Positions 3,657-61,189 of a stretch of 64,000 nt of DNA are shown here, piece by piece (within the stretch, counting starts at the first letter, position 1; each line of letters starts with the position of its first letter). The stretch lies in contig UQHW01000001.1 in NCBI GenBank assembly GCA_900540935.1, positions 43,867-107,866 on the forward strand, written 5' to 3'. The stretch comes from an uncultured Collinsella sp. (GTDB taxonomy: Bacteria > Actinomycetota > Coriobacteriia > Coriobacteriales > Coriobacteriaceae). The position numbers and the translations under genes were made by a program. The notes under the pieces were generated by a model. That model was not told the DNA's origin. It ran no database searches and was given only the letters and a program-made list of their open reading frames with translations.

Positions 3657-3695
3657 AAAAGGGCCCCGCTACCGTAACGGCAGCGGGGCCCTTTA
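3657..3695. terminator. bidirectional rho-independent terminator between birA and rpsJ
   Basis: GC-rich hairpin aaaagggccccgctaccgtaacggcagcggggcccttta with A/T runs on both sides. Confidence 0.6.
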
Positions 3696-4082: not shown

Positions 4083-6182
4083 TTAGGCGTTCTTGCTCAT
4101 GACCTCGTCCACGATGGACTTGGGCGCGGGCTCATAAGAGTCGAACTGCATCGTGTAGGATGCACGGCCCTGGGTCTGGGAGCGAAGGTCGGTAGCGTAA
4201 CCGAACATCTCGCCCAGCGGCACCTTGGCACGGATGAGCTTGCTGTTCTTGCGATCCTCCATGCCCTCGATCTTGCCGCGGCGACCGGAGAGGTTGCCCA
4301 TAACGTCGCCCATGTACTGCTCAGGGGTCTCGACCTCGACAGCCATGATCGGCTCGAGCAGCTGCGGATCGGACTTCTTGAGGGCGTCCTTGATAGCCAT
4401 GGAACCGGCGATCTTGAAGGCGGCCTCGGAGGAGTCGACCTCGTGGTAAGAACCGTCGAACAGGGTGACCTTAACGTCGAGGACCGGGAAGCCGGCGATA
4501 ACACCGGTGTTCAGGGCCTCCTGGATGCCCTTGTCGATGGACGGGATGTACTCCTTGGGCACGACGCCGCCGACGATAGCGTTGACGAACTCGTAGCCGA
4601 AGCCCTCCTCCATCTTCTCGAGCTTGATGACGGCGTGGCCGTACTGACCGCGACCGCCGGACTGACGGACGAACTTGCCCTCAGCCTTCTCGACGTCGTG
4701 ACCAGCGGTCTCGCGGTAGGCAACCTGGGGCTTACCAACGTTAGCGTCAACCTTGAACTCGCGGAGCAGACGGTCGACGATGATCTCGAGGTGCAGCTCG
4801 CCCATGCCGGCGATGATGGTCTGGCCGGTCTCGTGGTTGGTGGACACCTGGAAGGTCGGGTCCTCCTCGGCGAGCTTGGTCAGAGCCAGGGACATCTTGT
4901 CCTGCTCGGCCTTGGTCTTGGGCTCGATGGCAACGTCGATAACGGGCTTAGCGAACTCGATCTTCTCGAGGACGATCTCCTTGCCCTCGGCGCACAGGGT
5001 GTCACCGGTGGTGGAGTTCTTGAAGCCGACGCAAGCAACGATGTCGCCGGCGGCAGCGTCGTCACGGTCGATACGCTCGGCGGCGTTCATCTCGAGGATG
5101 CGGCCGAGGCGCTCGCGCTGACCGTTGGAAGCGTTGACCACGTAGGAGCCGGACTCGGCACGGCCGGAGTAAACGCGGACGTAGGTGAGCTTACCGACGA
5201 ACGGGTCGGTCATGATCTTGAAGACCAGGCCGGAGAAGGGCTCGTCGAAGGAAGGATGACGCTGGATCTCCTCGCCGGTGTCCGGATCGGTACCGGTGAC
5301 AGCCTCAACGTCGAGCGGGCTGGGCAGGTAGTCGACGACAGCGTCGAGCAGCTCCTGAACGCCCTTGTTCTTGTAGGCGGAGCCCACGAAGACGAGGTTG
5401 AGCTCGTTGGCCAGAACGCCCTTACGCAGAGCCGCCTTGAGCTCCTCGACGGTGAAGTCCTCCTCCATGAGGATCTTCTCCATGAGCTCGTCGTCAAAGC
5501 TGGCAGCAGCGTCAAGGAGCTCCTCGCGCTTGGTGGCAGCGATGTCGGCAAACTCAGCCGGGATCTCGTCCATCGGCTCGGGGTAGGTCATACCCTTCTC
5601 GTCGGCCTTGAAGTCCCATGCAGTCATGGTGACCAGGTCGATGACGCCCCAGAAGTTGTCCTCGGCGCCCATCGGGACCTGAGCGGCCACGGCGTTAGCG
5701 TCGAGACGATCCTTCATGGTCTCGATAGCGTTGAAGAAGTCAGCGCCCACGCGGTCATACTTGTTGATGAAGGCGATGCGGGGGACGTTGAAGGTAGAAG
5801 CCTGACGCCAAACGGTCTCAGACTGGGGCTGAACGCCGGCAACGGCGTCGAAGACGGCGACAGCGCCATCGAGGACGCGCAGGCAGCGCTCGACCTCGGC
5901 GGTGAAGTCAACGTGGCCCGGGGTGTCGATGATCTGGATGCGGTAGTCCTTACCGTCCTTGTTCCAGAAGCACGTGGTAGCAGCGGAGGTAATGGTTACG
6001 CCGCGCTCCTGCTCCTGAACCATCCAGTCCATGGTGGCAGCGCCCTCATGGACCTCACCGATCTTGTGGGTCTTACCGGTGTAGTAAAGAATACGCTCGG
6101 TCGTGGTGGTCTTACCGGCATCGATGTGGGCCATGATGCCGATGTTACGGGTATCGGAAAGCTTGTACTTAGGCTTAGCCAT
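4083..6182 (-). CDS. fusA: elongation factor G
   Basis: 699 aa; [13 protein letters not shown]-domain, full EF-G architecture. Confidence 0.97.
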
Positions 6183-6202: not shown

Positions 6203-6676
6203 TTACCAACGATAGTGAGAGAACGCGCGGTTGGCCTCGGCCATCTTGAAGACGTCCTCACGCTTCTTGACGGAAGCGCCCAGGCCGTTGGAAGCGTCGA
6301 GGATCTCGTTGGCGAGACGCTCGGCCATGGTCTTCTCCTTGCGAGCGCGGGAGAAGTTGACGATCCAGCGGATACCCAGAGCGGTGGAACGACGGGAGTT
6401 GACCTCCATCGGGACCTGATAGGTAGCGCCACCGACACGCTTGGGCTTAACCTCGAGCGTGGGCTTGACGTTGTCCATAGCCTTCTTGAAGGTAGCGAGA
6501 GCGTCGCCACCCTCGGACTTCTCGGCAACGATCTCGAAAGCGGTGTAAACGATGCGCTCAGCGGTGGCCTTCTTGCCGTCAAGAAGGACCTTGTTGATGA
6601 GCTGAGTCACCAGGCGGTTGTTGTAAACGGCGTCAGGCTGAACCTCACGACGATTAGCTGCTGCACGACGCGGCAT
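6203..6676 (-). CDS. rpsG: 30S ribosomal protein S7
   Basis: 157 aa [15 protein letters not shown]...; a canonical S7 sequence. Confidence 0.95.
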
Positions 6677-6749: not shown

Positions 6750-7127
6750 TTATTTAGCCTTGGGGCGCTTAGCACCGTACTTGGAACGGGCCTGCATACG
6801 GTTCTGGACCGGAGCAGCGTCGTAGGCGCCACGGATGACGTGATAACGGACACCAGGGAGGTCACGGACACGACCGCCGCGGACGAGCACGATGGAGTGC
6901 TCCTGCAGGTTGTGGCCCTCACCCGGGATGTAAGCAGTAACTTCGATGCCGTTGACGAGGCGAACACGGGCAACCTTACGAAGAGCCGAGTTCGGCTTCT
7001 TGGGGCTCGTGGTGAAGACGCGGGTGCACACGCCGCGCTTCTGGGAGTTGTGCTGCAGAGCAGCGTTCTTGGACTTCTTGGGCACGGAACGACGGCCCTG
7101 GCGAACCAGCTGGTTAATAGTAGGCAA
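6750..7127 (-). CDS. rpsL: 30S ribosomal protein S12
   Basis: 125 aa [12 protein letters not shown]...[10 protein letters not shown]; a canonical S12 sequence. Confidence 0.97.
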
Positions 7128-7332
7128 AGCGTACTCCTTCTCGAATGATTCCAGCTTTCTGTAAAGTGCAACGGCTTGAATCGAGGGGTCAGCATCCCCC
7201 TACGAAACACGCAGTTCGATAGGATACGTGGCGTTAGCTGTGCCGTCAACAGACCACGCCGCCGGGCGTATCCCAAAATAGCCATATTTCCGCAAAGCCT
7301 ACACAAAAGGAATCCCCTCCTGTGCGCGGGGG

Positions 7333-7473
7333 CGGATTCCCGGTCCGGGCGGCCCGCTGTTTAAGTTTGCTGCTCTACAGTCCTGCGCAAGACGGAAAGC
7401 ACATTAAGTGCTTTCCTTTGCGTGCGGAACTCGCGACAAACTTAAACAGCGGGCCGCCCGGACCGGGAATCCG
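7333..7473. repeat. nested-hairpin repeat element, family A copy 1, in the rpsL 5' leader
   Basis: 37 bp perfect inverted arms (cggattcccggtccgggcggcccgctgtttaagtttg / caaacttaaacagcgggccgcccggaccgggaatccg). They flank an inner hairpin ggaaagcacattaagtgctttcc followed by gcgtgcggaa. Confidence 0.7.
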
Positions 7474-7503
7474 ACGTGCTTGTCGGGGCAACGTTCCCTT
7501 CCA

Positions 7504-7548
7504 AATAGGGACAGGTTTATTTTGGTCGGTTTTATCTGGGGAAACGTC
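7504..7548. repeat. short repeat family C copy 1 (gggacaggtttattttg...ggttttaYctg...aaacgtc)
   Basis: About 85% identical to 36066..36111. Confidence 0.55.
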
Positions 7549-7651
7549 GCGCTCCAGCGGTGATCTGCTCTCATCTGTCGCATGGAAATCGGCGGCGTTT
7601 CCATTTAACGCAAAAGAGGCCGCTTCCCCTAGTAGGAAGCGACCCCAAATC

Positions 7652-8728
7652 TTACGAATAGACGATGGTAAAGGGCTCTTTCGTTTCGGTATCCCCTGTT
7701 GATGTATACCTCACAATTTCAAGGGTTACCGAGACAACTTGATCGACATCAATCAACTTCGTTGGCACCCAGATGTTCTCTCCGCTATTGCGCCCATAAG
7801 AAAAATATAAGTTGAACACCCCTGCGTCGTCATCTTCGATAATCTGCTCCGATCCATCCTTGTAGCTGACGGTCAGCTTATTATCAACTGCTTCATAGCC
7901 CAAATCATCGATGTGCGTCTGGATGGAAAACGGGCTAATCTCAAGAGGCGAGTCACCGGAGCGGAGTTCCTTTGTATCGACGTACGCTCCAATATTGAAC
8001 TCGGGTGTCGACGCCTCAAACCGCCTCGCACTCTCACCTTCACCCTCGGTCCAATGGATATTCCAGGTGACAGCATGTTGCAAATCTCGCTCGCGATCCA
8101 TAGCGGCAAAGTACATCGTGCCATTAATGACAGTATCGCTTGATGTGTCCTTATCAATTGTGCTGCGTGTGTCAGGCCATTCCTCGCCGAACTTCATATC
8201 GGGCGTGCCGATGCCCTGCTCTTCTTCACCATAGAGAACAAGTTCGCCAATCTCTGCTGCTGGCTTGTAGTAGTTAACTCCATTTGGATTGGACAACGTA
8301 AACGTCACGGCTCCGCAGCCGTTTTGGTCGATTGCCATCTCATGGATATCAAGCGTATAGCCGTTGCCCTCGACGGACAGATTAACCTCCTGGACTGCGC
8401 CTTCCAGGCTTTGGGGCGCGATGCCATCGCCAAACTCTCTGGTGTAGGTATATTTAGTTCCCGATGAGCCGCCGTTGGTCCAGGTAATGGAATCCCCGTT
8501 GCCGTGGTTTCCCCAGGCAGAGGCAAAATAGCTGGAATTGACGAAGGCGTAGGCGACCCCTCCGGTCGCCAGCACTCCGGCAAGGCATCCGATCACGGCA
8601 ACATACAGAGGCTTCGCGTGACCCTTTCGGCGAAGCGGCTCACCAGCAGCGGCATAAAGAACACGGTCAGCAAGATCGCTATCGGCTTGGACGGACTCGA
8701 AGGCCTGCTTGATTTGATTGGATTTCAC
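7652..8728 (-). CDS. anti-sigma factor (single-pass membrane protein with a large extracytoplasmic domain)
   Basis: 358 aa with a short cytoplasmic N-terminus, one TM helix (PLYVAVIGCLAGVLATGGVAYAFV) and an extracellular domain. It overlaps the upstream ECF sigma gene. The region has low GC. Confidence 0.6.
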   Translation of the reverse strand: MKSNQIKQAFESVQADSDLADRVLYAAAGEPLRRKGHAKPLYVAVIGCLAGVLATGGVAYAFVNSSYFASAWGNHGNGDSITWTNGGSSGTKYTYTREFGDGIAPQSLEGAVQEVNLSVEGNGYTLDIHEMAIDQNGCGAVTFTLSNPNGVNYYKPAAEIGELVLYGEEEQGIGTPDMKFGEEWPDTRSTIDKDTSSDTVINGTMYFAAMDRERDLQHAVTWNIHWTEGEGESARRFEASTPEFNIGAYVDTKELRSGDSPLEISPFSIQTHIDDLGYEAVDNKLTVSYKDGSEQIIEDDDAGVFNLYFSYGRNSGENIWVPTKLIDVDQVVSVTLEIVRYTSTGDTETKEPFTIVYS

Positions 8729-9203
8729 GGTCGCCCTCCTCTAGGATGAACTTGAGCTTCGATCTGCCGCGAGCCAAACGCGTTCGAACAGTCGCGGCTG
8801 GCACATGCAATAACTCGGCAATCTCTGAGGTCGAAAAGCCCAGATAGTAATAGAGCATGATGGGAACACGGAATCGTTCCGGAAGTCGCATAACGTCTGA
8901 CAAGACCGCCTTGGTCTCATCCTGCGCCGCCGAAAGCGAATCGGCCAGGTTCTCAATATCCTCCACACGCCTCCATGGCTTTCGAAAGAGCGATTTGCAT
9001 TCATTGATCGTGACCCGGATAAGCCAGCGACGAAGATGTTCCCAACTTTCAAAGTGTCCATCGCTTTTAAGCAACTTAAGAAAGACATCTTGGGCAATAT
9101 CGTCGGCATCGGCACGATCGCGCAGGTACGTCAATGCGATTCGAAACACGACATCCCGGTGATCTTCGACCGCCTGTCTAAATGCCTGTTCTTCCATAAT
9201 CAC
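8679..9203 (-). CDS. ECF-type RNA polymerase sigma-70 factor
   Basis: 174 aa; sigma-70 region 2 (DIAQDVFLKL...WLIRVTINECK) and region 4 (LGFSTSEIAELLHVPAATVRTRLARGR). Confidence 0.85.
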   Translation of the reverse strand: MIMEEQAFRQAVEDHRDVVFRIALTYLRDRADADDIAQDVFLKLLKSDGHFESWEHLRRWLIRVTINECKSLFRKPWRRVEDIENLADSLSAAQDETKAVLSDVMRLPERFRVPIMLYYYLGFSTSEIAELLHVPAATVRTRLARGRSKLKFILEEGDREIQSNQAGLRVRPSR

Positions 9204-9391
9204 CTCCCGGTGACGTTAATGATTCTTGCTGAGGCCCTCACCATAGATACGCTTTGACCGAACGAAATGTTTCAAATTCAAGCAGGAATAACCTACCAAA
9301 AAACCCTGCCCCTTATTGGCAAGGGATCGACGGAACGCAACAGGTTGAGCATACGCAAGCGAGCGGCCCCCAGAGCGTACAAGGTGGCATG

Positions 9392-9433
9392 AAAAAGGCA
9401 GGGCATTGACCTTTTGGTCATGCCCTGCCTTTT
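9392..9433 (-). terminator. rho-independent terminator downstream of rpoC, enclosed by an outer 14 bp inverted repeat (9363..9376 / 9449..9462)
   Basis: Minus-strand hairpin aaaaggcagggcatgacc...ggtcaatgccctgcctttt followed by a T-run. The outer arms are gcggcccccagagc / gctctgggggccgc. Confidence 0.6.
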
Positions 9434-9506
9434 GAATGACAGATTGTAGCTCTGGGGGCCGCGCAGCGACGGAGATCGCCGCCGTTCGTTAGAACGGCGG
9501 AACTAG

Positions 9507-13988
<4,482 letters not shown>

Positions 13989-16900
13989 CTACTCCTTATC
14001 AGTGGTCGTGGCGGCGACAGCCTCGGGTGCCTCGGCGGTCTCGGCATCCTGGGCCTCGACGTCGGCGTCAACGCCGGCGAGCGCAGCCAGGTCGTCGAGG
14101 GCAGAGGTCTCCTCGGCGGTCACAGGGGCGGAGGCGTCCTCGTCGGCATCGTGCATGGGCTCGATGTCCAGCGCGAGGGAGCGAATCTCCTTGACGAGAA
14201 CCTTGAAGGACTCGGGGATACCCGGGACCGGGACGTTCTCGCCCTTGACGATGGACTCGTAGGTCTTGACGCGGCCCACGGTATCGTCGGACTTGACGGT
14301 CAGGATCTCCTGCAGGACGTTGGAAGCACCGTACGCGTACAGTGCCCAAACTTCCATCTCACCGAAGCGCTGGCCGCCGAACTGGGCCTTGCCGCCCAGA
14401 GGCTGCTGGGTAACCAGGCTGTAAGGGCCGGTCGAACGGGCGTGGATCTTGTCGTCGACCATGTGGCCGAGCTTGAGGATGTAGGACGTACCCACGGTAA
14501 TGGGCTCGCGGAACTCCTCGCCGGTGCGGCCGTCGAACAGGCGGGTCTTGCCGCGCTCGTCAAGCTGGGTGACGAACTCGGGGCGCATGTGATCACCAAA
14601 GGCAGCGGTGGCCTTGTTGAGCATGTTCTTGTTGGCACGACGAATGACCTCGGCGATCTCGTCCTCCTTGGCGCCGTCGAAGACAGGCGTGGCGGTGAAG
14701 AACGGACCGGGGACGTACTTATCGGAGTCGGCCTGCTCAGTATCCCAACCGCAGGCAGCAGCCCAGCCAAGGTGGCACTCGAGCAGCTGGCCGACGTTCA
14801 TACGCGAAGGAACGCCCAGCGGGTTGAGGATAACGTCGATCGGGGTACCGTCAGCCATGTAGGGCATGTCCTCGACCGGCAGAACGTTACAGATAACACC
14901 CTTGTTGCCGTGGCGGCCGGCGATCTTATCGCCCTGCTGGATCTTACGACGCTGAGCGACGTAGACGCGCACCTGCTCGTTGACGCCGGGGGCCAGGTCG
15001 TCGCCGTTCTCGCGGCTAAAGCGGACGACGTCGATGACGCGGCCGTAAGCGCCGTGAGGCATCTTAAGGGAGGTGTCGCGGACGTCGTGGGCCTTGGCAC
15101 CGAAGATGGCGCGCAGCAGGCGCTCCTCGGCGGTCAGAGCGCTCTCGCCCTTAGGCGTGACCTTGCCGACCAGGATGTCGCCAGGGCCGACCTCGGCGCC
15201 GATGCGGATGATGCCGTCCTCGTCGAGGTTGGCAAGCATGTCCTCGGAGAGGTTCGGGATCTCGCGGGTGATCTCCTCGGGGCCGAGCTTGGTGTCGCGG
15301 GCATCGATCTCGTGACGGGTGATGTTGATGGTCGTCAGCAGGTCCTCGGCCACCAGGCGCTCGGACACGACGATACCGTCCTCGTAGTTGAAGCCTTCCC
15401 ACGGCATGTAGGCCACGGTGAGGTTCTGGCCCAGCGCGAGCTCGCCGTGATCGGTCGAAGGACCGTCGGCCAGAGGCTCGCCCTGCTCAACGGTGTCACC
15501 GACACGCACGAGCGGACGGTGGTTGATGCAGGTGGACTGGTTGGAACGCTGGTACTTGGCCAGGTGATACTCGTCCATGCCGCCGGCATGCTTGACGATG
15601 ATCTTGGCGGCGTCGGCAAAGATGACCTCGCCGGCGTTCTTGGCCAGGGTGACCTCGCCGGAGTCCAGGGCGGCGCGACGCTCCATGCCGGTACCGACAT
15701 AGGGAGCGGCGGGGTGAACCAGCGGCACGGCCTGACGCTGCATGTTAGCGCCCATGAGCGTACGCTTAGCGTCGTCGTGCTCGAGGAACGGGATCAGCGT
15801 GGCTGCGACGGAGAGCATCTGACGCGGCGAGACGTCCATGTAGTCGACATCCTCGACGGGCACGTCGGCGGGGGCGCCGAAGGAGCCGTCGAAGTCGCGG
15901 GTACGGGCGATCACGGTGTGCGGACGGACGAGCTTGCCCTCGGCATCGGTCGTGATGAACTCGTTGGTCTTGGGATCGAGCGGCGTGTTGGCCGGCGCGA
16001 TGACGTGCTTCTCTTCCTCGTCAGCGGTCATCCAGTCGATCTGGTCGGTGGCAACGCCGTTCTCGACGCGACGGAACGGGGCCTCGATGAAGCCGTACTC
16101 GTTCACGCGGGCATAGAGGGCGAGCGAGCCGATCAGGCCGATGTTGGGGCCTTCGGGGGTCTCGATCGGGCACATGCGGCTGTAGTGCGAGTTGTGAACG
16201 TCGCGGACGGCCGTCGGCACGTTGGTGCGGCGGCTGGAGCCGGACTTGTGGCCGGCAAGACCGCCAGGGCCGAGTGCGGACAGACGACGCTTGTGGGTCA
16301 GACCGGTCAGGGGGTTCGCCTGGTCCATGAACTGCGAGAGCTGCGAGGAACCGAAGAACTCCTTGATGGAGGCCACGATCGGGCGGATGTTGATGAGCGA
16401 CTGCGGGGTGATCTCGTCGATGTCCTGGGAGCTCATGCGCTCACGGACGACGCGCTCCATACGGCTCATGCCGATACGGAACTGGTTGGCGACGAGCTCG
16501 CCGACGGTGCGGATGCGGCGGTTGCCGAAGTGGTCGATGTCGTCGACCTTGAAGCCCTGCTCGCCGGCAGCGAGGGACAGCAGGTAACGCAGCGTCGCGA
16601 CGATATCCTCGTCGGTGAGCACCGTGACCTCTTCCTCGGTGGTGAGGTTGAGCTTCTTGTTGACCTTGTAACGACCGACGCGGGCCAGATCGTAGCGCTG
16701 CGGGTTAAAGAGCAGGCCCTCGAGCAGGCTGCGGGAAGCGTCCACGGTGGGAGGCTCGCCCGGGCGCAGGCGACGGTAGATCTCGATGAGGGCGTCCTCG
16801 CGAGTGAGGGCGGTGTCGCGCTCCAGGGTGCGCTTGATCACATCGGAGTTGCCGAGCAGCTCGATGATGTCGTCGTTGGTGACGGCGATGCCAAGGGCGC

Positions 16901-17480
16901 GCAGGAACATCGTGGCGCTCTGCTTGCGCTTACGGTCGATGGAGACCATGAGCTGGTCGCGCTTGTCGACCTCGAACTCAAGCCAGGCACCGCGGGACGG
17001 GATGATCTGGGCCTTGTAGATCTGCTTGCCCGAATCCATCTCGGAGCTGTAGTACACACCCGGGGAACGGACGAGCTGCGAGACGACGATACGCTCGGTA
17101 CCGTTGATGATGAAGGTACCCTGATCGGTCATCATGGGGAAGTCGCCCATGAAGACGAGCTGCTCCTTGATCTCGCCGGTCTCCTTGTTGGTGAGACGGA
17201 CGTCGGTCAGAAGCGGAGCCTGATAGGTCATATCCTTCTCGCGGCACTCCTCGACGGTGTGCGCGGGGTCGCCGAACTGATGCTCGCCGAAGGTAACCTC
17301 GAGAACATGGTTCTGGCTCTGGATGGGGCTGGATTCCTTGAACGCCTCACGAAGGCCCTCGTCCTTAAAACGCTCAAAGGATTCCCTTTGAACAGAGATA
17401 AGGTTGGGGAGCTCCATGGCCTCCGGGATTTTCCCGAAGCTGACGCGCTTGCGCTCAGTGGCAGTGTATGCGTAGGTCAC
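13989..17480 (-). CDS. rpoB: DNA-directed RNA polymerase subunit beta
   Basis: 1163 aa; canonical rpoB sequence. Confidence 0.97.
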
Positions 17481-17797: not shown

Positions 17798-18706
17798 TTA
17801 CTTGCGCATCAAGCCGCCGCGCTCGTCGATGGCGTCCCAGAAAGCGTCGGCGAAGCGAGGATCGCTTGCGGCCATGAGGGCGTTGGTGGCCATCCAACCA
17901 GAGGGCGTGCCAGTGTCATAGCCCGAAAGCGGGTCGATGACGACGGCGTACATGGCCTCGCGGTCGAGCGAGCGGGCCATGGCGTCGGTGAGCTGGATCT
18001 CGCCGCCCTTGCCGGCCTGCTGATCGGCGAGCAGGTCCATGACCAGCGGGCTCAGCAGATAACGGCCGACGATGTACAGGTTTGAGGGAGCCGCCTCGGG
18101 GGCAGGCTTCTCAACCAGACCGCCGATACGCCAGACAGCGCCCGGCTCGGCATCGGCGACATTCTCGAAGCCCTCGAGCGAGCCCACGCGGTCGCCGGCG
18201 ATAACGCCATAACGGCTGACTTCCTCGGGAGCGCACGCGGCGACGGCGATAACGGAAGCGCCACCGTGCTCCTTAGAGACGGCGAGCATCTTGTCGCAGA
18301 TGTCGCGGTTAGGCACAACGTAGTCGCCCAGAAGAACCAGGAAGTTCTCCCCTGCCACGGCGTCGGCGGCAGAGCGAATGGCGTGGCCGAGGCCCTTGGG
18401 CTCGTACTGGTAGCGGAAGTCGACCGGCATGCCACCCGCATGGGCGACGGCGTCGGCGTAAGCGTTCTTGCCGCGCTCGCGCAGCAGGTTCTCGAGCGAG
18501 CGATCGGGCTGGAAGTAGTTCAGCAGCTCGGGCTTGCCGGGAGAAGTAACGATGATGGCATCGTCGACCTCCTCGGGGTCGAGCGCCTCCTCAACGACAT
18601 ACTGGATGACCGGCTTGTCGAGAACCGGCAGCATCTCTTTGGGGGTGCACTTGGTGCCAGGCAGAAAACGCGTGCCAAGACCGGCGGCGGGGATGATTGC
18701 CTTCAT
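17798..18706 (-). CDS. galU: UTP--glucose-1-phosphate uridylyltransferase
   Basis: MKAIIPAAGLGTRFLPGTK...; a nucleotidyltransferase GalU sequence. Start trimmed to MKAII. Confidence 0.85.
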   Translation of the reverse strand: MKAIIPAAGLGTRFLPGTKCTPKEMLPVLDKPVIQYVVEEALDPEEVDDAIIVTSPGKPELLNYFQPDRSLENLLRERGKNAYADAVAHAGGMPVDFRYQYEPKGLGHAIRSAADAVAGENFLVLLGDYVVPNRDICDKMLAVSKEHGGASVIAVAACAPEEVSRYGVIAGDRVGSLEGFENVADAEPGAVWRIGGLVEKPAPEAAPSNLYIVGRYLLSPLVMDLLADQQAGKGGEIQLTDAMARSLDREAMYAVVIDPLSGYDTGTPSGWMATNALMAASDPRFADAFWDAIDERGGLMRK

Positions 18707-19500: not shown

Positions 19501-20022
19501 CTAGGCTGCCTTCTGCTCGGAGACCTGCTGGATCGAACGAGCGAGACCAGAGGAAACGCCGTTGACGCAGACAGCGATGTCGCGAGCGAAACCGGAGATG
19601 AGACCGGCGATCTGGCCGAGAAGCTGATCCTTGGTGGGCAGCTCGGCGATAGCCTTAACATCATCAGCGGAAACGGCCTTGCCGTCGGAGATACCGCCCT
19701 TGATCTCAAGGACGCCCTTGGACTTAGCGGAGAAGTCCTTAAGGGCCTTAGCGGCCTCGACCGGCTCGGACTCGTAGAACACATAAGCGACGGGGCCGGC
19801 GAGAATCTCGTCGAGCTCGGGCTGCTCCTGGTTCTTGAGAGCGATCTTGACCAGGTTGTTCTTGTAGACCTTCATCTCGGCGCCGCACTCGCGAAGCTGA
19901 TGACGCAGCTCCTGAGCCTGCTTAACCGTCAGACCGTTGTAGTTGACGACGAACAGACCGGCGTTCTCGGCGATACGGGACTCGATCTCTGCAACCTTGT
20001 CGATTTTGTACTGCTGGGGCAT
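19501..20022 (-). CDS. rplJ: 50S ribosomal protein L10
   Basis: 173 aa L10 sequence immediately upstream of rplL. Confidence 0.95.
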   Translation of the reverse strand: MPQQYKIDKVAEIESRIAENAGLFVVNYNGLTVKQAQELRHQLRECGAEMKVYKNNLVKIALKNQEQPELDEILAGPVAYVFYESEPVEAAKALKDFSAKSKGVLEIKGGISDGKAVSADDVKAIAELPTKDQLLGQIAGLISGFARDIAVCVNGVSSGLARSIQQVSEQKAA

Positions 20023-20306
20023 GAATTACACCTCCTCGAATTCTTTCCGGGCACGGTCCGCCACAAGGACGTGACGGGGGCATGTCCAAAAAGAAAGCCC
20101 CCGCGCTGCATGAGCGACGGGGGCGAGAAGACATATCTACTCGACCACCTCGGCTGGCGGGAAGTCCCATTAAGCTCGCGGGTAAGACCCGTTTGCGCCG
20201 GCTGTCTCTGGCAGCGGATTCGTGCGTGAACCGAAAGTATTATGGCGGGGACCCCGGCGTCGGTCAACGGGCGCGAGGATTCGTACACAAACCCTGCATA
20301 CGCTCC

Positions 20307-20426
20307 GGCCCGAGGGGACGGGTCGAGATTTTCGCTCGGTCAAGTCCTGGGCTCGCACGAAGGCCACATTAAGTGGCCTTCGGCTCGTGCGGAATCTACG
20401 AAAATTTCGACCCGTCCCCTCGGGCC
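20307..20426. repeat. nested-hairpin repeat element, family A copy 2, in the rplJ 5' leader
   Basis: 28 bp inverted arms (ggcccgaggggacgggtcgagattttcg / cgaaaatttcgacccgtcccctcgggcc). They flank the inner hairpin cgaaggccacattaagtggccttcg followed by tcgtgcggaa. The core is homologous to copy 1. Confidence 0.7.
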
Positions 20427-20525
20427 AGAGCTACGGTAACTTTACTGCGAATCTTCGCGCCCGTTGAGCGACGCGCCCCACGCATACCCTTATGTCGGTG
20501 GGCTGATGTGTTGCGTCTCTGAGGA

Positions 20526-21662
20526 CTACAAGGTTGAAACGAAGTTTGACAGGCGGCGGAGACCTTCGTCCAGATTTTTGTCGGAGACGCAGTAGCTTAG
20601 GCGGATGTGGCCTTCGGTTCCGAAGCAGTCTCCCGGGACTAGGGCTACGTTTGCTTCTTTGATGGCTTTGATGCAGAAGTCTTCGCTGGTTAGGCCGAAC
20701 TTTTTGATGCTCGGGAAAGTATAGAAGGCTCCTGCGGGCTCTACTACGTCGAGGCCCATGGCGTTTAAGGCTTCGAGTACGCGCTCGCGGCGGGCTCGGT
20801 AGACTTTGAGCATGGGGGTTGGGTCGACGGTGAGGGCTCGGGCTGCGGCGTCCATTTCGAAGGAGACGGCGCTCGATACTAGGTATTGGTGGGCTTTTGC
20901 GATCTCGGCGATGACGGGTGTTGCTGCCGCGAGCCAGCCCAAACGCCAGCCGGTCATGGCCCAGGGCTTGGAGAAGCTCTCGATGACGACCGTCTGCTCA
21001 CGCAGCTCCGGGTGACGCTGGGCAAAGCGCTCGTAGCCATCCACATAAACCAGGCGGTTATATACGTCGTCGCAGACCACGTAGATGCCCGCCTCCTCCG
21101 CCACGTGCGCCACGGCGTCGAGCGAAGCCGCGTTGAGGATACAGCCCGTAGGATTGTTGGGCGAGCAGATGACGATGGCCTTGGTCGCCGGCGTCACGCA
21201 AGCACGAAGCGCATCCTCGTCAATCTGAAATTGCGCAGGCTCCGTATCCAAAAAGATCGCCTTGGCGTGGTTGGTCACGACGATGCTTTCGTACAGGCCA
21301 AAGGCCGGCGTGGGGATAATGACCTCGTCGCCGGGGTTGAGCATAGCCATGAATGTTGCCGACAGTGCCTCGGTCGCACCGTCGGTCAGGATGACCTCAT
21401 CGGCGGAAAACGCCAGGTCCGCGTCATCCATATATTTGGACAGTGCATCGCGCAGGGCGGGGCGACCGTTGTTGGGCGGATAGTGCGTGTCACCGCGGTC
21501 CAGTGCGGCGGTCACCTCGGCGCTAATCACATCGGGCGTGGGAAAATCGGGTTCGCCGAGCGCGAGCGCGATGCACCCCGGATGCTGGGCGGCGAGCGCG
21601 TTAATCCGGCGGATACCGGAGGGCTTGAGCATGGCAAGCGAGGTATTCATGGGCAGACGCAT
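20526..21662 (-). CDS. pyridoxal phosphate-dependent aminotransferase, class I/II (aspartate aminotransferase-like)
   Basis: 378 aa; fold-type I aminotransferase features (NNPTG-like block, SFSKPWAMTGWRLGW lysine region). Confidence 0.85.
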   Translation of the reverse strand: MRLPMNTSLAMLKPSGIRRINALAAQHPGCIALALGEPDFPTPDVISAEVTAALDRGDTHYPPNNGRPALRDALSKYMDDADLAFSADEVILTDGATEALSATFMAMLNPGDEVIIPTPAFGLYESIVVTNHAKAIFLDTEPAQFQIDEDALRACVTPATKAIVICSPNNPTGCILNAASLDAVAHVAEEAGIYVVCDDVYNRLVYVDGYERFAQRHPELREQTVVIESFSKPWAMTGWRLGWLAAATPVIAEIAKAHQYLVSSAVSFEMDAAARALTVDPTPMLKVYRARRERVLEALNAMGLDVVEPAGAFYTFPSIKKFGLTSEDFCIKAIKEANVALVPGDCFGTEGHIRLSYCVSDKNLDEGLRRLSNFVSTL

Positions 21663-22419: not shown

Positions 22420-22983
22420 TTAAATAACAGCCCAGTCAACGGCTTCCCTCCAACGCTCGACAAGCCGCTCCAGGCGCCAGGCGGCATTGGCGGGACTTGT
22501 CGAGGGCAGGACGATGGCAGGCAGCCCGGTGCGTTCTTGTAGATAGCGCTTGTAGAGCCGGCCAGCTGTACCACCGTTGCATATCACCTGCTCAATGGGA
22601 GCTGCGCCGGTAATGCGCTCGATATGTGCCGGCACAACGTTGCGAATGCTCGCGTCGCTCGAGCCCTTAATGTCGCAGCTCTCAATCACATCCCACAGGG
22701 CCACGCCACCGTTCAACAGCATGGATCGCTTGGCGGCAATCGAGGCGTCGAGCGTCGCGGGCTCACCGCTTGCCAAAGGGTCGCCCTCGTTGGGCGGCAC
22801 GGGCACACTAAGACACGCAGCCATCACGCGCCAAAAGCGGTTCTGAGGATTGCCGTAATAAAAGGCATTGGCGCGCGAAAGCACCGAGGGAAACGACCCC
22901 AGCACCAAAACGCGCGAGTGCTCGTCAAACACGGGTTCAAACCCATGCTCAATATGTTGATAGCCCTCATCCGGCGCTGTCAT
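22420..22983 (-). CDS. uracil-DNA glycosylase superfamily protein (DNA-deoxyinosine glycosylase-like)
   Basis: 187 aa; GSFPS and GNPQNRFW motifs of the UDG fold. Tightly coupled to the upstream GH13 gene. Confidence 0.6.
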   Translation of the reverse strand: MTAPDEGYQHIEHGFEPVFDEHSRVLVLGSFPSVLSRANAFYYGNPQNRFWRVMAACLSVPVPPNEGDPLASGEPATLDASIAAKRSMLLNGGVALWDVIESCDIKGSSDASIRNVVPAHIERITGAAPIEQVICNGGTAGRLYKRYLQERTGLPAIVLPSTSPANAAWRLERLVERWREAVDWAVI

Positions 22984-22986
22984 GAT

Positions 22987-24363
22987 CTAGGCCCTCAACA
23001 GATAGCGCACCTCGTAGGGTGCAAGCTCAAGGGAGCCAGCCAGCTCGACCGTGGGCACGCCGTCGGCAAGCAGGTCGACAAAGGACCCGTTGAGCTCGCC
23101 GGCGCCAAAGGTGTAAGGCTCACCCACGGCATTCACCGCCACGAGTACCGTCGCGCCGTCACAGGCGCGCTCGAACAGCAGCTGCTTGTTCTGGATCACC
23201 ACGTTGCGATAGGCACCGTAGTTGAGAGCACGGGCAGCCGCGTCGTCAGCCGAGCGAAGGTGCGCAAGCTGCGTGATGAACGCCGTCAGCTCGTTGGGCG
23301 CAGGCTCATTGAGCGCAGGTCGCAGCGCCCAGTCGCCATCGGGGCCACCCTTTTCGCCGGCAATTCCCCACTCGCTGCCATAGTAGACGCACGGGATGCC
23401 CGGCATGCCAAAGAGCATGCCGTAGGCGGGACGCAGACACGACTTGTCGGTGAGGATACTTGCCAGGCGCGGCACATCGTGGTTGTCGACAAACGACAGC
23501 AGATGTTTGCCGCGGTAGATGCACCACGGATCGCCGCCAAACTGACGGTGCAGCGAATGGGCGATCTCGAACATGTTGACCGAGTTAAAGCTGGAGTACA
23601 GGCCCTTGTAGCACTCGTAGTTGGTGCAGGAGTCGAGCATCTCGTCGTTGACGATCTGGTTGTAGTCGCCGTGGAGCGTCTCGCCGATCAGGATAAAGTC
23701 GGTCTTGAGCTCACGGGTAAAGGCGTGCAGGCGGCGCATGAAGTCGCGGTCGAGCATATAGGCAACGTCCAAGCGCAGGCCGTCGACGCCAAAGACCTCG
23801 GCCCAGCGACGCACGGACTCAAGCAGGTAATCGACCACGGCGGGGTTTTGCAGGTTGAGCTTCACAAGCTCAAAATGGCCCTCCCAGCCCTCATACCAAA
23901 AGCCGTCGCCGTAGCACGAGTCACCGTCAAAGCTGATGTGGAACCAATCCTTGTACGGCGAATCCCACTTGCGCTCCTGCACATCGCGGAAGGCCCAAAA
24001 ACCGCGGCCGACGTGGTTGAAGACGGCATCGAGCAACACGCGGATGCCATGGGCATGCAGCGTGTCGCATACGGCGGCAAAGTCGGCGTCCCCACCCAGG
24101 CGACGGTCGATATGGCGCAGGCTGCGTGTATCGTAGCCGTGGCTATCAGATTCGAGCGGTGGGTTGATGAGCACGGCGCCAACGCCGAGTTCCTGCATGT
24201 AGTCGGCCCATTGGGCGATCTTCATGATGGGCGCATCGGGGTTTGGCGCGGCGTTGACAGCCTGGGCGAGCTCATCCTCGGCAACGGGCGCGGCGTTTTC
24301 GCGCGGAGCTCCACAGAAGCCCAGCGGATAGATCTGGTAGAACGTCGTCTCGTATGCCCACAT
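22987..24363 (-). CDS. glycoside hydrolase family 13 alpha-glycosidase (alpha-amylase catalytic domain)
   Basis: 458 aa; GH13 conserved regions (DAVFNHVG, GVDGLRLDVA, EHDV-like FVDNHD). Confidence 0.85.
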   Translation of the reverse strand: MWAYETTFYQIYPLGFCGAPRENAAPVAEDELAQAVNAAPNPDAPIMKIAQWADYMQELGVGAVLINPPLESDSHGYDTRSLRHIDRRLGGDADFAAVCDTLHAHGIRVLLDAVFNHVGRGFWAFRDVQERKWDSPYKDWFHISFDGDSCYGDGFWYEGWEGHFELVKLNLQNPAVVDYLLESVRRWAEVFGVDGLRLDVAYMLDRDFMRRLHAFTRELKTDFILIGETLHGDYNQIVNDEMLDSCTNYECYKGLYSSFNSVNMFEIAHSLHRQFGGDPWCIYRGKHLLSFVDNHDVPRLASILTDKSCLRPAYGMLFGMPGIPCVYYGSEWGIAGEKGGPDGDWALRPALNEPAPNELTAFITQLAHLRSADDAAARALNYGAYRNVVIQNKQLLFERACDGATVLVAVNAVGEPYTFGAGELNGSFVDLLADGVPTVELAGSLELAPYEVRYLLRA

Positions 24364-24433
24364 AGCAACCTCCCGGTAAGCTCAACACAACGACATCCAT
24401 TGTATGCCCGGCTTGTATCCTCTTCCCCAAAAT

Positions 24434-24500
24434 AAGTTGCGGTGGAATAGTTCCTGCTTGGGCCTTCAGAGGCCTTAAACAGGAACTATTCCACCGCAAC
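24434..24500. repeat. REP-like palindromic element, family B copy 1
   Basis: aagttgcggtggaatagttcctg...caggaactattccaccgcaac; about 20 bp terminal inverted repeats. Confidence 0.7.
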
Positions 24501-24516
24501 TGATGAGGGGACGTGG

Positions 24517-28339: not shown

Positions 28340-28566
28340 AGGTGGGAGAGTTCAGGGACACAGTTTCCCAATGAGGCCTCTCGGGGAAACTGCGTCCCTG
28401 AACTCTGGCTCGAAACGGGATATGGTTTCCCAAGCAGGCCTCTTACGGAAAATGCATCCCGGAATCCCCACTCGAAACGGGACGCACTTTCTCAGTCGAG
28501 GCCCTATGGGAAACCGTGTCCCACCTTGAAGGGGGAACTGGGATGCAGTTTCCGGACGGGACATCA
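28340..28566. repeat. tandem array of ~3.5 imperfect ~60 bp hairpin units
   Basis: Units such as gggacacagtttccc...gggaaactgcgtccc. Units 2 and 3 are each preceded by ctcgaaacggga. Confidence 0.65.
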
Positions 28567-36065: not shown

Positions 36066-36111
36066 AAAAAGGGACAGGTTTATTTTGACAGGTTTTACCT
36101 GCGCAAACGTC
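36066..36111. repeat. short repeat family C copy 2
   Basis: aaaaagggacaggtttattttgacaggttttacctgcgcaaacgtc, similar to 7504..7548. Confidence 0.55.
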
Positions 36112-41145: not shown

Positions 41146-41852
41146 AAATCCTTGCCATAGCCGATACCGAAGAACGATGCCTTTGGGAGTGCTTTCGCAA
41201 GGAACGCTTTGAGGGAGTCGACCTGATTTTGTCCGCCGGCGATCTGGACCCGGACTATCTTGAGTTTTTGGTTACGGTCATCAACAAACCGCTCATCTAC
41301 GTGCGCGGCAATCACGATGACCGCTACGCACGTCATGCACCGGGTGGATGTATCTGCGTAGAGGACAGCGTGTACACGTACCGAGGGATTCGCATTGCGG
41401 GCCTTGGCGGGTCCATGCGTTATCGCGACGGCGCCAACATGTACACCGAATGCGAGATGTCCAAGCGCATGCGTAAGCTGTCGCGTAAGGTTAGGATGGT
41501 CGGCGGGTGCGACATTCTGCTTACCCATGCACCCGCCGCCGGTATGGGTGATCTGGACGATCTGCCGCATCGAGGATTCGAGTGCTTTAACACAGCACTC
41601 GAATCCTGGAATCCCGACTACATGGTGCACGGGCATGTGCACCAAAGCTACGGTTGTGATTTTCAGCGCGAGCGTCAGCATGTGTGTGGAACGACGATCA
41701 TCAACGCCTGCGGCTATACGCAGTTTGAGCTCGACCAGACGCACTACCCCATCCGCGGCTGGCAAGCAGCGTGGCTCAACTCACAAACCATGCGCCGCGA
41801 GCTCAAACGCCACGAAGCCATCGAGTCTTCAACAGCCAGAACACCCTGGTAA
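41142..41852 (+). CDS. metallophosphoesterase (calcineurin-like)
   Basis: Motifs D-x-H...GDL..., GNHD, GHVH. Translationally coupled to the upstream gene. Confidence 0.8.
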   Translation: MKILAIADTEERCLWECFRKERFEGVDLILSAGDLDPDYLEFLVTVINKPLIYVRGNHDDRYARHAPGGCICVEDSVYTYRGIRIAGLGGSMRYRDGANMYTECEMSKRMRKLSRKVRMVGGCDILLTHAPAAGMGDLDDLPHRGFECFNTALESWNPDYMVHGHVHQSYGCDFQRERQHVCGTTIINACGYTQFELDQTHYPIRGWQAAWLNSQTMRRELKRHEAIESSTARTPW

Positions 41853-41977
41853 CCACCATAAAGGGGACACTGTCCCCTTTATGGTGCTTTTGACGCGATA
41901 GCAAGAAACCCGGTCCTGCACAAGGCGGAACCGGGTTTCTTTAGCAATGCTTGCTGTACTCAGGCAGTAACTAGCAG

Positions 41978-46663: not shown

Positions 46664-46810
46664 TTCGAGCGTGGATTTTCTCCCGTTTGAAATCGAGCGT
46701 GGATAATCTCCCACTTTTGGCATGGCCCCAAGGCCAAAGTGGCAGATTATCCACGCTCATTCTCCAGGCGGGAGCTTTTCCACTCTCGTGTGTCCGAATA
46801 TCCACGCTCG
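46664..46810. promoter_or_regulatory. cluster of five DnaA-box-like 9-mers (TTATCCACG / CGTGGATAA and variants)
   Basis: gagcgtggatttt, gagcgtggataat, gattatccacgctc, ttttccact, aatatccacgctc. Two direct and three inverted copies within 150 bp. Confidence 0.4.
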
Positions 46811-46834: not shown

Positions 46835-46990
46835 GCTTCAGTCTCGATCTGTAACAGTAAGAGGGTTATTCCTCCCCTATCTGTTACAGATTGAGATATT
46901 ACGCAGAGACCCCAGCTCACGTCTCATTCTGTAACAGTAAGAACGGTTTTTCGCCCCTTCGTGTTACAGATCGAGACAAACCTGAAGCTA
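46835..46990. repeat. nested palindrome: two tandem hairpins with 11 bp stems (atctgtaacag / ctgttacagat) inside an outer ~25 bp inverted repeat
   Basis: The loops share taaga..ggtt.tt..c.cccct. The outer arms are cagcttcagtctcgatctgtaacag / ctgttacagatcgagac..ctgaagctag. Confidence 0.6.
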
Positions 46991-60989: not shown

Positions 60990-61189
60990 GGTCCTTTCTG
61001 TGTTACGCCGCGGCACCACGCAACAAAAACGGGCGGGCGAGATGGAGCTGTTGGGACTTCATCTCGCCCGCCCGCGATACGTGCGTCTGCGACTACTTAT
61101 GTGGTGGAACTACCCTAACACGAACGGCGCGCGCTTCGTAAGCGTTGAGTTTATGAAGATGCAGGGCACCAATAATCCCCCGACCCCAT

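Follow-up and report, generated by a model that had tools for sequence, protein, structure and literature searches.

Dispersed palindromic repeats with a constant apex and locus-specific arms at gene boundaries of Collinsella

What is a long nested hairpin doing upstream of a ribosomal protein gene, and why does its centre come back, between other arms, upstream of a second one? The question arises in a stretch of 64,000 nucleotides from an uncultured Collinsella sp. (assembly GCA_900540935.1, contig UQHW01000001.1, positions 43,867 to 107,866; hereafter the window), where a palindrome of 141 nt lies upstream of rpsL and a related one upstream of rplJ. The initial annotation had seen in them either insertions resembling miniature inverted-repeat transposable elements (MITEs) or a structured RNA motif common to ribosomal operons. 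We find that both belong to a dispersed palindromic repeat family of Collinsella, here called Family A; this conclusion is very secure.

The rpsL copy (copy 1, 7333-7473) is indeed, as first described, a 141-bp element with perfect inverted arms of 37 bp. An inverted-repeat search recovers 7333-7369 and 7437-7473, 37 nt each, 100% complementary and 67 nt apart; the core strand is the minus strand, on which 7437-7473 is the 5' arm and 7333-7369 the 3' arm. The 67 nt between them (7370-7436, minus strand) form an asymmetric apical module, TCGCGAG-TTCCGCACG-...-CAC TTAAT GTG-...-CAGGAC-TGTAGAGCAG, conserved by its invariant columns and covarying apical stem (n = 67 sequences). The hairpin that the core had been said to form by itself is found there as the apical hairpin, 7394-7402 pairing with 7408-7416 around the loop 7403-7407. 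On the minus strand copy 1 folds at -113.3 kcal/mol (z = -12.8), and it scores 110.3 bits with a covariance model built from 67 family members. It corresponds to positions 537720-537860 of NZ_OY725717.1, a C. aerofaciens record of 899,693 bp, with 99.4% identity across the element. The window itself is of C. aerofaciens.

The rplJ copy (copy 2, 20302-20431, minus strand, 94.2 bits) folds on the minus strand at -157.3 kcal/mol (z = -12.6). Its core (20343-20394) is homologous to that of copy 1, as proposed: CACATTAAGTG is found exactly twice in the window, at 7400 and 20365, and AGTCCTG-N(20-50)-TGCGGAA has exactly two matches, 7379-7429 and 20343-20394, where shuffled sequences predict 0.02. 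The shared core thus reads AGTCCTG..CACATTAAGTG..TGCGGAA, and its second occurrence is enclosed by different arms. These had been described as perfectly inverted, which they are not quite: 20302-20334 and 20399-20431 (33 nt) are 94% complementary, with two mismatches, one of them within 20307-20426. Also missed at first was a third layer of inverted repeat nested around copy 2, 20257-20283 with 20448-20474 (27 nt, 93% complementary), which is kept as a structure in other species (locus L038). Scanned with the covariance model, the window contains these two copies only (110 and 94 bits), the next matches being their own reverse strands.

That the resemblance of the two cores is due to chance is refuted by the wider core search, in which further copies are abundant. 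The genome scan used an exact core pattern, and counts from the listed matches are lower bounds: at least 120 genome stretches carry it and, among the matches listed, all but one are from Collinsella or Coriobacteriaceae. Genome stretches and strain loci together give at least 146 matches in at least 28 locus groups with unrelated neighbour genes across Collinsella, including RNase J/PNPase (pnp/rnj), thrC-thrB, polA, valS, leuS, uvrD-like, gatB, groES, nrdD, def, sdaA, manA and tsaD. The model separates true copies (at least 57 bits) from reverse-strand shadows (at most 46 bits), with no tail of decayed copies. In NZ_OY725717.1 it finds exactly 13 copies (93-115 bits, background at most 46), a number also reached by blastn; all 13 are intergenic. 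Ten of them, matched by a relaxed core pattern, measure 112-149 nt, and the other three were located by the model alone; in the family as a whole, copies have this length or more. Many metagenomic contigs terminate within the element. We found no description of the family in the searchable literature, including searches for Collinsella together with MITE, REP, REPIN or RAYT, and it is apparently undescribed.

A phage or plasmid origin was considered and rejected: the phage collections gave no match to the element, and the single "plasmid" match is a mislabelled 0.9-Mb piece of chromosome. The latter is NZ_OY725717.1 itself (loci L145-L162), a chromosome fragment listed in PLSDB as a plasmid although it carries rpoBC, most ribosomal-protein operons, tuf, groESL, recA, rho and dnaE; its S10 operon is split, rpsJ lying at 534 kb and rplC at 519 kb with fatty-acid synthesis genes between. 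Three IMG/VR contigs classed as viral (L131-L133) contain the exact core. A 5-kb contig binned as Methanobrevibacter smithii (L047, CAVHBE010000088.1) ends in a Family A copy and is probably mis-binned Collinsella.

Across the family the architecture is that of a conserved, non-palindromic apical module of about 65-90 nt topping an 18-53-bp stem of locus-specific sequence. Read 5' to 3' on the core strand, it comprises the outer arm, the linker TCGCGAG, TTCCGCACG, a short helix that differs between subfamilies, the apical hairpin (consensus RRRRNCAC / TTAAT / GTGNYYYY), CAGGAC, a second linker (TGTAGAGCAG or TGYCCGAGCAG) and the complementary arm. The outer arm has a weak GGnCCCCGG at its outer end, a free middle and TaAGtTTG at its inner end. 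Covariation, which the initial annotation had proposed to examine, is strong, 22 of the 29 consensus pairs showing compensatory double changes in the 67-sequence alignment. Several apical hairpins are chimeric, their halves coming from different alleles (L043, L080, L100, L099, L079 and L115), and the inner-hairpin allele of the rpsL copy varies between strains and can match the rplJ copy. These exchanges suggest conversion between copies, though an artefact in the assembly of metagenome-assembled genomes (MAGs) is possible. The apical module might be held constant by such inter-copy conversion, by a protein recognising it, or by both.

Other features proposed on the way did not hold. Conserved 15-nt "tags" outside the arms, apparent by eye, carry at most 0.4 bits of positional information; a Tn3-like GGGG..TAAG inverted repeat is at odds with the arm length to TAAG, which varies from 26 to 45 nt. 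A group II intron domain V, a hammerhead, a K-turn and a small open reading frame (ORF) starting from the loop ATG were considered on the sequence and rejected.

How do the arms evolve? Between locus groups the outer arms have no similarity, and in orthologous copies they are 80% identical, versus 90% for the core and 84% and 91% for the flanks; between species the arms diverge faster than the flanks. Within a copy, they remain 97.7% complementary (76 mismatches in 3252 pairs), and 319 of the 387 variable arm positions (82%) are Watson-Crick double changes. The mismatches comprise 24 of G·T type, 18 of A·C type and 34 others, without excess of wobbles or strand asymmetry. RNA stems normally tolerate wobble pairs. 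Since G·U pairs are not in excess and the strands behave alike, the pairing of the arms appears to be maintained at the DNA level, a conclusion with good support: a process acting on DNA would keep the arms identical, and selection for an RNA fold on one strand would not be expected to give such a pattern. Hairpin-templated correction, or arm-to-arm conversion of the palindrome, might be this process. In their behaviour the arms resemble neither an ordinary RNA stem nor the terminal repeat of a MITE.

These figures bear directly on the idea that the elements act as structured RNAs, their stems kept paired by selection on the RNA fold; examples would be long double-stranded hairpins cut by RNase III, stabilisers of 3' ends whose apical loop binds a protein, or small RNAs present in several copies. 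Strong covariation of both the outer stem and the apical hairpin, an extremely stable fold and the conserved sequences of apical loop and bulge all speak for it, and many copies are certainly transcribed, since they lie 7-46 nt after stop codons or inside the thrC-thrB operon. We nevertheless regard it as rather improbable. G·U mismatches are as rare as A·C ones (24 versus 18 in 3252 pairs), with no strand preference, and the two gene contexts, after a stop or upstream of a gene, would expose opposite strands of the apex in the transcript, leaving no single surface for recognition as RNA. Moreover, several copies stand after a terminator and before a promoter, a position in which transcription should be low.

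The copies of the window were initially placed in the 5' leaders of rpsL and rplJ. Promoter positions, predicted from sequence as sigma-70 consensus matches, contradict this placement: TTGACG-17-TATCCT for rpsL (7221-7249, minus strand) and TTGACC-17-CATAAT for rplJ (20239-20267, minus strand, 10/12 consensus matches) each lie between the copy and the gene, and are the only sigma-70-like promoters for these genes. That of rpsL is conserved in 10/10 strain loci, including a locus without the element. Upstream, the DUF4179 gene ends with an intrinsic terminator (7616-7646, minus strand, a 13-bp stem followed by TTTT), and copy 1 is placed between this terminator and the predicted rpsL promoter. 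Copy 2 is about 35 nt upstream of the predicted rplJ -35 hexamer, the hexamer itself being included in the left half (20257-20283) of the outermost inverted repeat. As the predicted promoters sit between elements and genes, the elements would lie outside both leaders. We take the element, in front of rpsL as of rplJ, for a neighbour of the promoter on its upstream side, and that it is no leader is very secure. What was said of the strand, the same for the copies and for rpsL and rplJ, stands.

For the element to be a cis-regulatory leader, it should form a hairpin in the 5' untranslated region of rpsL or rplJ and be bound there by a ribosomal protein for autoregulation. Both copies of the window stand before ribosomal-protein genes, on their coding strand, and a third is found before rplC; the promoter calls are consensus matches only, and transcription of the aminotransferase gene might read through into the rplJ copy. 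Weighed against these points, besides the predicted promoters downstream of the elements and the terminator upstream of the rpsL copy, are the 10 of 13 copies in one genome and the majority of the 28 locus groups that are unrelated to ribosomal proteins, the six copies that follow stop codons in reverse orientation, and a strain (L009) without the rpsL copy, yet with an identical RpsL and an intact predicted promoter. At gathering thresholds, an Rfam scan of the window returned tRNAs only and no family over the element, the L10 leader included; an E-value scan added only a spurious long-hairpin match to the signal recognition particle RNA (22.7 bits versus a threshold of 60). An autoregulatory leader is therefore very unlikely. 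The broader proposal of an RNA motif common to ribosomal operons is not supported either, given at least 28 unrelated loci, half of the copies opposite and after stops, and no G·U signature; what remains true in it is that three of the seven upstream-type copies of the 0.9-Mb record precede rpsL, rplJ and rplC. The RNA motifs of the Collinsella-1 and microbiome papers are unrelated to Family A; HMP2_254 among them lies upstream of rplL.

The orientation of the copies is strict. According to the annotation of the 0.9-Mb record, 13/13 copies point their CAGGAC side at a gene. Six follow a stop codon (pnp, manA, uvrD-like, two hypothetical genes and tsaD), starting 7-46 nt past it with the gene transcribed towards the copy; the seven others (rnj, rplC, rpsL, rplJ, groES, thrB and cstA) precede a gene that is read in the same direction. 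In the two back-to-back pairs, pnp/rnj and tsaD/cstA, each class is represented once. Proximity to a stop codon is found again in about ten locus groups of other species. Along the single replichore of the record, where the GC skew is monotonic, copies split into 6 on the plus and 7 on the minus strand; this indicates that polarity tracks genes and not replication, and the replication-strand bias expected for transposition of single-stranded DNA at the fork is absent.

In about one third of the locus groups the element is flanked by an additional, imperfect inverted repeat. This outer repeat is nearly symmetric, 14-17 nt outside each arm (16/18 at rplJ, 14/14 at nrdD, 16/14 at groES), and its right half is the 3' coding end of the neighbour gene at nrdD, at a short-chain dehydrogenase/reductase gene and at one other locus. 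We would see such repeats if the element were centred in an older hairpin, for example a terminator overlapping the stop codon, and equally if palindromes grew outwards by copying. No empty hairpin allele was recovered; the metagenome search at the nrdD locus gave unrelated low-GC DNA only and is uninformative. Core-less hairpins with arms of 18-31 nt are common in the window: we noted those at 24432-24504, 28347-28406, 41851-41889, 3658-3694 and 61030-61074 (arms of 18-30 nt), the first overlapping the stop codon of ORF 22624-24435. In this genome such unusually long stems may be the ordinary form of a terminator.

A further reading makes the element a module that seeks hairpins and is mobile or recombinogenic: its constant apical head would enter or build long perfect palindromes at gene boundaries, always in one orientation relative to the gene. 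Some putative enzyme would mobilise the head, and the arms would then be continuously re-copied from each other. Locus-specific perfect arms, symmetric outer repeats and 13/13 polarity without replication bias fit this scenario without proving it, and we retain it as an unlikely though not far-fetched possibility.

Strains differ in their copies. We compared ten strain loci, all encoding an identical RpsL (in the assembly collection, more than 52,000 indexed blocks contain this protein). Eight of the ten have the rpsL copy; it is absent from L009, where about 270 nt are missing and the promoter is retained, and truncated in L004. Upstream of the rpsL copy, L005 and L007 (about 2400-2560 of the locus) have an extra, unrelated nested-hairpin insert, CGGAAGTATGCGGCAAAAT ... 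ATTTTGCCGCATACTTCCG, found in some strains only. In L004 a deletion seems to extend from within this insert as far as the right arm of the Family A copy. Copy 1 belongs to an approximate unit of 195 nt (7303-7497, minus strand), made of the palindrome, a small hairpin (7471-7486) and a terminator-like hairpin (7309-7340, where the inverted-repeat search detects 7309-7320/7329-7340) followed by TTTTG. A near-identical unit is found downstream of rpoC in three of the eight comparable strain loci (L001, L003 and L010), while L002, L004, L005, L006 and L008 have the empty allele; from our reading of the sequences, the arms of the L001 unit look recombined with the rpsL copy. The spacer between rpoC and the sigma factor gene has at least three alternative fillings among strains: the Family A unit, a nested hairpin (9357-9464 in the window, with outer arms GGCCCCCAGAGC.. 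and an inner A-tract/stem/T-tract hairpin), or neither.

The rplJ copy is fixed in 10/10 strains, and is present in other species with different compensated arms; generally, copies are inherited at orthologous positions across Collinsella species. The picture is that of a palindromic element vertically persistent at gene boundaries, of which whole units are occasionally gained, lost or partly deleted. The MITE-like alternative of the initial annotation is on the right track: the element is dispersed and shows presence/absence polymorphism.

Could the long inverted repeats be sites of a recombinase, the 67-nt core carrying a promoter that flips, as in an inverton? A short segment flanked by inverted repeats just upstream of genes in a gut bacterium invites the comparison, and a few of the chimeric apical hairpins (L043, L080, L100 and others) hint at an exchange at the TTAAT centre. 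The orientation of the core relative to its flanks is constant, however: 238 left-left and 341 right-right matches make 579 in the same orientation, versus 6 inverted, and 6/6 of the latter involve one aberrant MAG contig with mismatched arms. As the arms are not conserved between loci, they offer no common recombinase site, and no promoter-like site is seen within the element. We give this explanation hardly any credit.

Altogether, we read Family A as an intergenic palindromic DNA repeat of Collinsella (Coriobacteriia), comparable to REP/BIME/REPIN or MITE-like repeats but differently built, a reading to which we attach a probability of roughly 70%. On transcripts that include a copy, the hairpin, very stable at about -113 kcal/mol, could act at the gene boundary: at the 3' end of an mRNA as a barrier or terminator, and before a downstream promoter or ribosome-binding site as an insulator or an RNase III-type processing site. 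It is the position and the stability of the element, and these only, that suggest such boundary functions.

Several observations weigh against this reading. No transposase, RAYT or other partner gene adjoins any copy, by tblastn and by the record annotation. At the filled/empty junctions, a target-site duplication is at most a possible TTGCC, from a single pair with ambiguous junctions, and there is no further filled/empty pair among the collected loci. A new insertion was seen once, 2 kb from its likely donor, so that local recombination could explain it as well as transposition. The arms of different copies in one genome are unrelated, with no recent bursts as known for MITEs or REPINs. Part of the conservation of the core reflects ascertainment through the exact search pattern, although the model found no decayed tail. 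Strict polarity and a constant apex suggest a specific function or enzyme that a repeat of this type does not name, and each functional step given above is inferred.

An alternative is a domesticated DNA element, the palindrome extruding as a cruciform or hairpin whose constant apex is bound by a dedicated host protein; it would then mark or insulate the boundaries of transcription units in an orientation-dependent manner. The signature of maintenance at the DNA level, an apex invariant across loci and species with no decayed copies, the 13/13 gene-facing polarity independent of the replication strand and the persistence at orthologous loci across species are in keeping with it, as is the enrichment of upstream-type copies before the strong promoters of rpsL, rplJ, rplC and groES. 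No candidate protein was found, though; strains lacking the rpsL copy exist, which makes at least that copy dispensable, and insertion specificity could also yield polarity. We consider a domesticated element as conceivable, but tentatively and with low confidence.

In the window, all genes around the two copies are on the minus strand. Around copy 1 are fusA (4083-6182), rpsG (6203-6676), rpsL (6750-7127), the DUF4179 anti-sigma-like gene (7652-8728), an extracytoplasmic function (ECF) sigma factor gene (8679-9203), rpoC (9507-13988) and rpoB (13989-17480); around copy 2 are rplL (18052-18441), rplJ (19501-20022) and an aminotransferase gene (20526-21662). The ECF sigma and anti-sigma-like pair (7652-9203) separates rpoC from rpsL, whose operons are usually adjacent.

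Other repeats are found nearby. A module called "M" (7495-7525, plus strand), a terminator-like hairpin together with GGGACAGGTTTATTTTGG, abuts copy 1. It forms a dispersed repeat of its own, found 13 times in the 0.9-Mb record and twice in the window (7495-7525 and 36071-36088); at rpsL, rnj and rpoC it adjoins Family A copies and can do so in both orientations. Beside a tRNA cluster (Thr/Tyr/Thr/Met), the region 46680-46810 contains DnaA-box-like 9-mers, TTATCCACG at 46698 (minus) and 46747 (plus) and ATATCCACG at 46798 (plus), two of them within a 31-nt palindrome (46695-46758); this cluster might serve to titrate DnaA or in regulation. Between tRNA genes (46841-46977), two hairpin units in tandem, each of about 70 nt (..ctgtaaca..cttactgttacaga..), belong to a different repeat family. 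In one strain (L143, 3560-4300) an IS200/IS605 insertion with a Y1 transposase of 152 aa lies between rplL and a nucleoside triphosphate (NTP)-transferase gene; it possesses subterminal hairpins of its own, and the insertion is unrelated to Family A.

These repeats matter for several reasons. Collinsella is among the most prevalent genera of the human gut, and the family breaks its assemblies, many contigs ending inside the element. Copies before the promoters of rpsL, rplJ, rplC and groES and behind many stop codons may shape the expression of core genes or the stability of their mRNA. A constant apex, fast but compensated arms and a gene-facing polarity make a design that classical REP and MITE models do not explain, and the family offers a tractable system for studying how bacteria maintain long perfect palindromes. 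For motif hunters it holds a caution: strong covariation here does not mean an RNA regulator.

How does Family A compare with known systems? With ribosomal-protein leaders, such as the L10 leader (Rfam RF00557), it shares a coding-strand position upstream of rplJ and rpsL and a stable stem-loop; unlike them it has no Rfam match, is upstream of the predicted promoters, occupies many non-ribosomal loci in both orientations and is dispensable in a natural strain. Intrinsic or bidirectional terminators are likewise G+C-rich hairpins a few nt after stops, often between convergent genes, and the stop-proximal position (7-46 nt) is terminator-like in 6/13 copies. However, there is no run of T after either arm, the stems exceed the usual length by a factor of 3-5, a conserved apex of 65-90 nt replaces the short loop, and copies are also found upstream of promoters. 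Two further candidates were rejected: integron attC sites have conserved R''/R' boxes at their outer ends around a variable centre and form cassette arrays, whereas Family A has a conserved centre and variable ends, occurs as solitary or back-to-back copies and has no adjacent integrase; for a retron msr-msd, the neighbours are rpsL, rplJ and other housekeeping genes, with no adjoining reverse transcriptase.

Insertion sequences (IS) and introns that target palindromes, namely IS1397/ISKpn1 in the loops of BIMEs and group IIC introns at terminator hairpins, resemble Family A in that, at about one third of its loci, the latter sits symmetrically within an older inverted repeat. This symmetric nesting, 14-17 nt from the outer arms, is what one would expect had the element inserted, always in one orientation, in the middle of a hairpin that was already there. 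IS1397/ISKpn1 and group IIC introns encode their own enzyme, whereas Family A encodes nothing.

MITEs such as Correia of Neisseria, ERIC/IRU of enterobacteria and RUP/BOX of pneumococci are also non-coding intergenic insertions of 100-200 bp with terminal inverted repeats; they too show presence/absence polymorphism between strains, are co-transcribed with their neighbours, form RNase III-type stems and can adjoin promoters. Their terminal repeats are common to all copies and to a parent IS, and their insertions leave target-site duplications. Family A has only a weak consensus at the ends of its arms (GGnCCCCGG and TaAGtTTG, at most 1 bit), and neither a parent IS nor a clear duplication was found.

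The REP/BIME/REPIN repeats of Enterobacteria and Pseudomonas, which are mobilised by the Y1 transposase RAYT, have in common with Family A that they are extragenic, palindromic and multi-copy, often just after stops or within operons; they are inherited vertically at orthologous sites, can form inverted doublets, and are thought to act as 3' barriers of mRNA, terminators or protein-binding sites. No RAYT was found: a tblastn search with Y1 transposase over 1.07 Mb of element-bearing loci gave only unrelated IS200, and the tnpA genes of the 0.9-Mb record are ordinary IS200/IS605, none flanked by Family A copies. As for the GTAG or CGTC tag of REP/REPIN, some subfamilies have GTAG in their right linker (TGTAGAGCAG, GCAGTAGC) and others lack it (TGTCCGAGCAG, CTGACCGAGCG). 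Family A is also less abundant, with about 14 copies per Mb. Above all the design is reversed: REP and REPIN conserve their arms (25-35-mers) around a free spacer, whereas Family A conserves its centre and leaves the arms to each locus.

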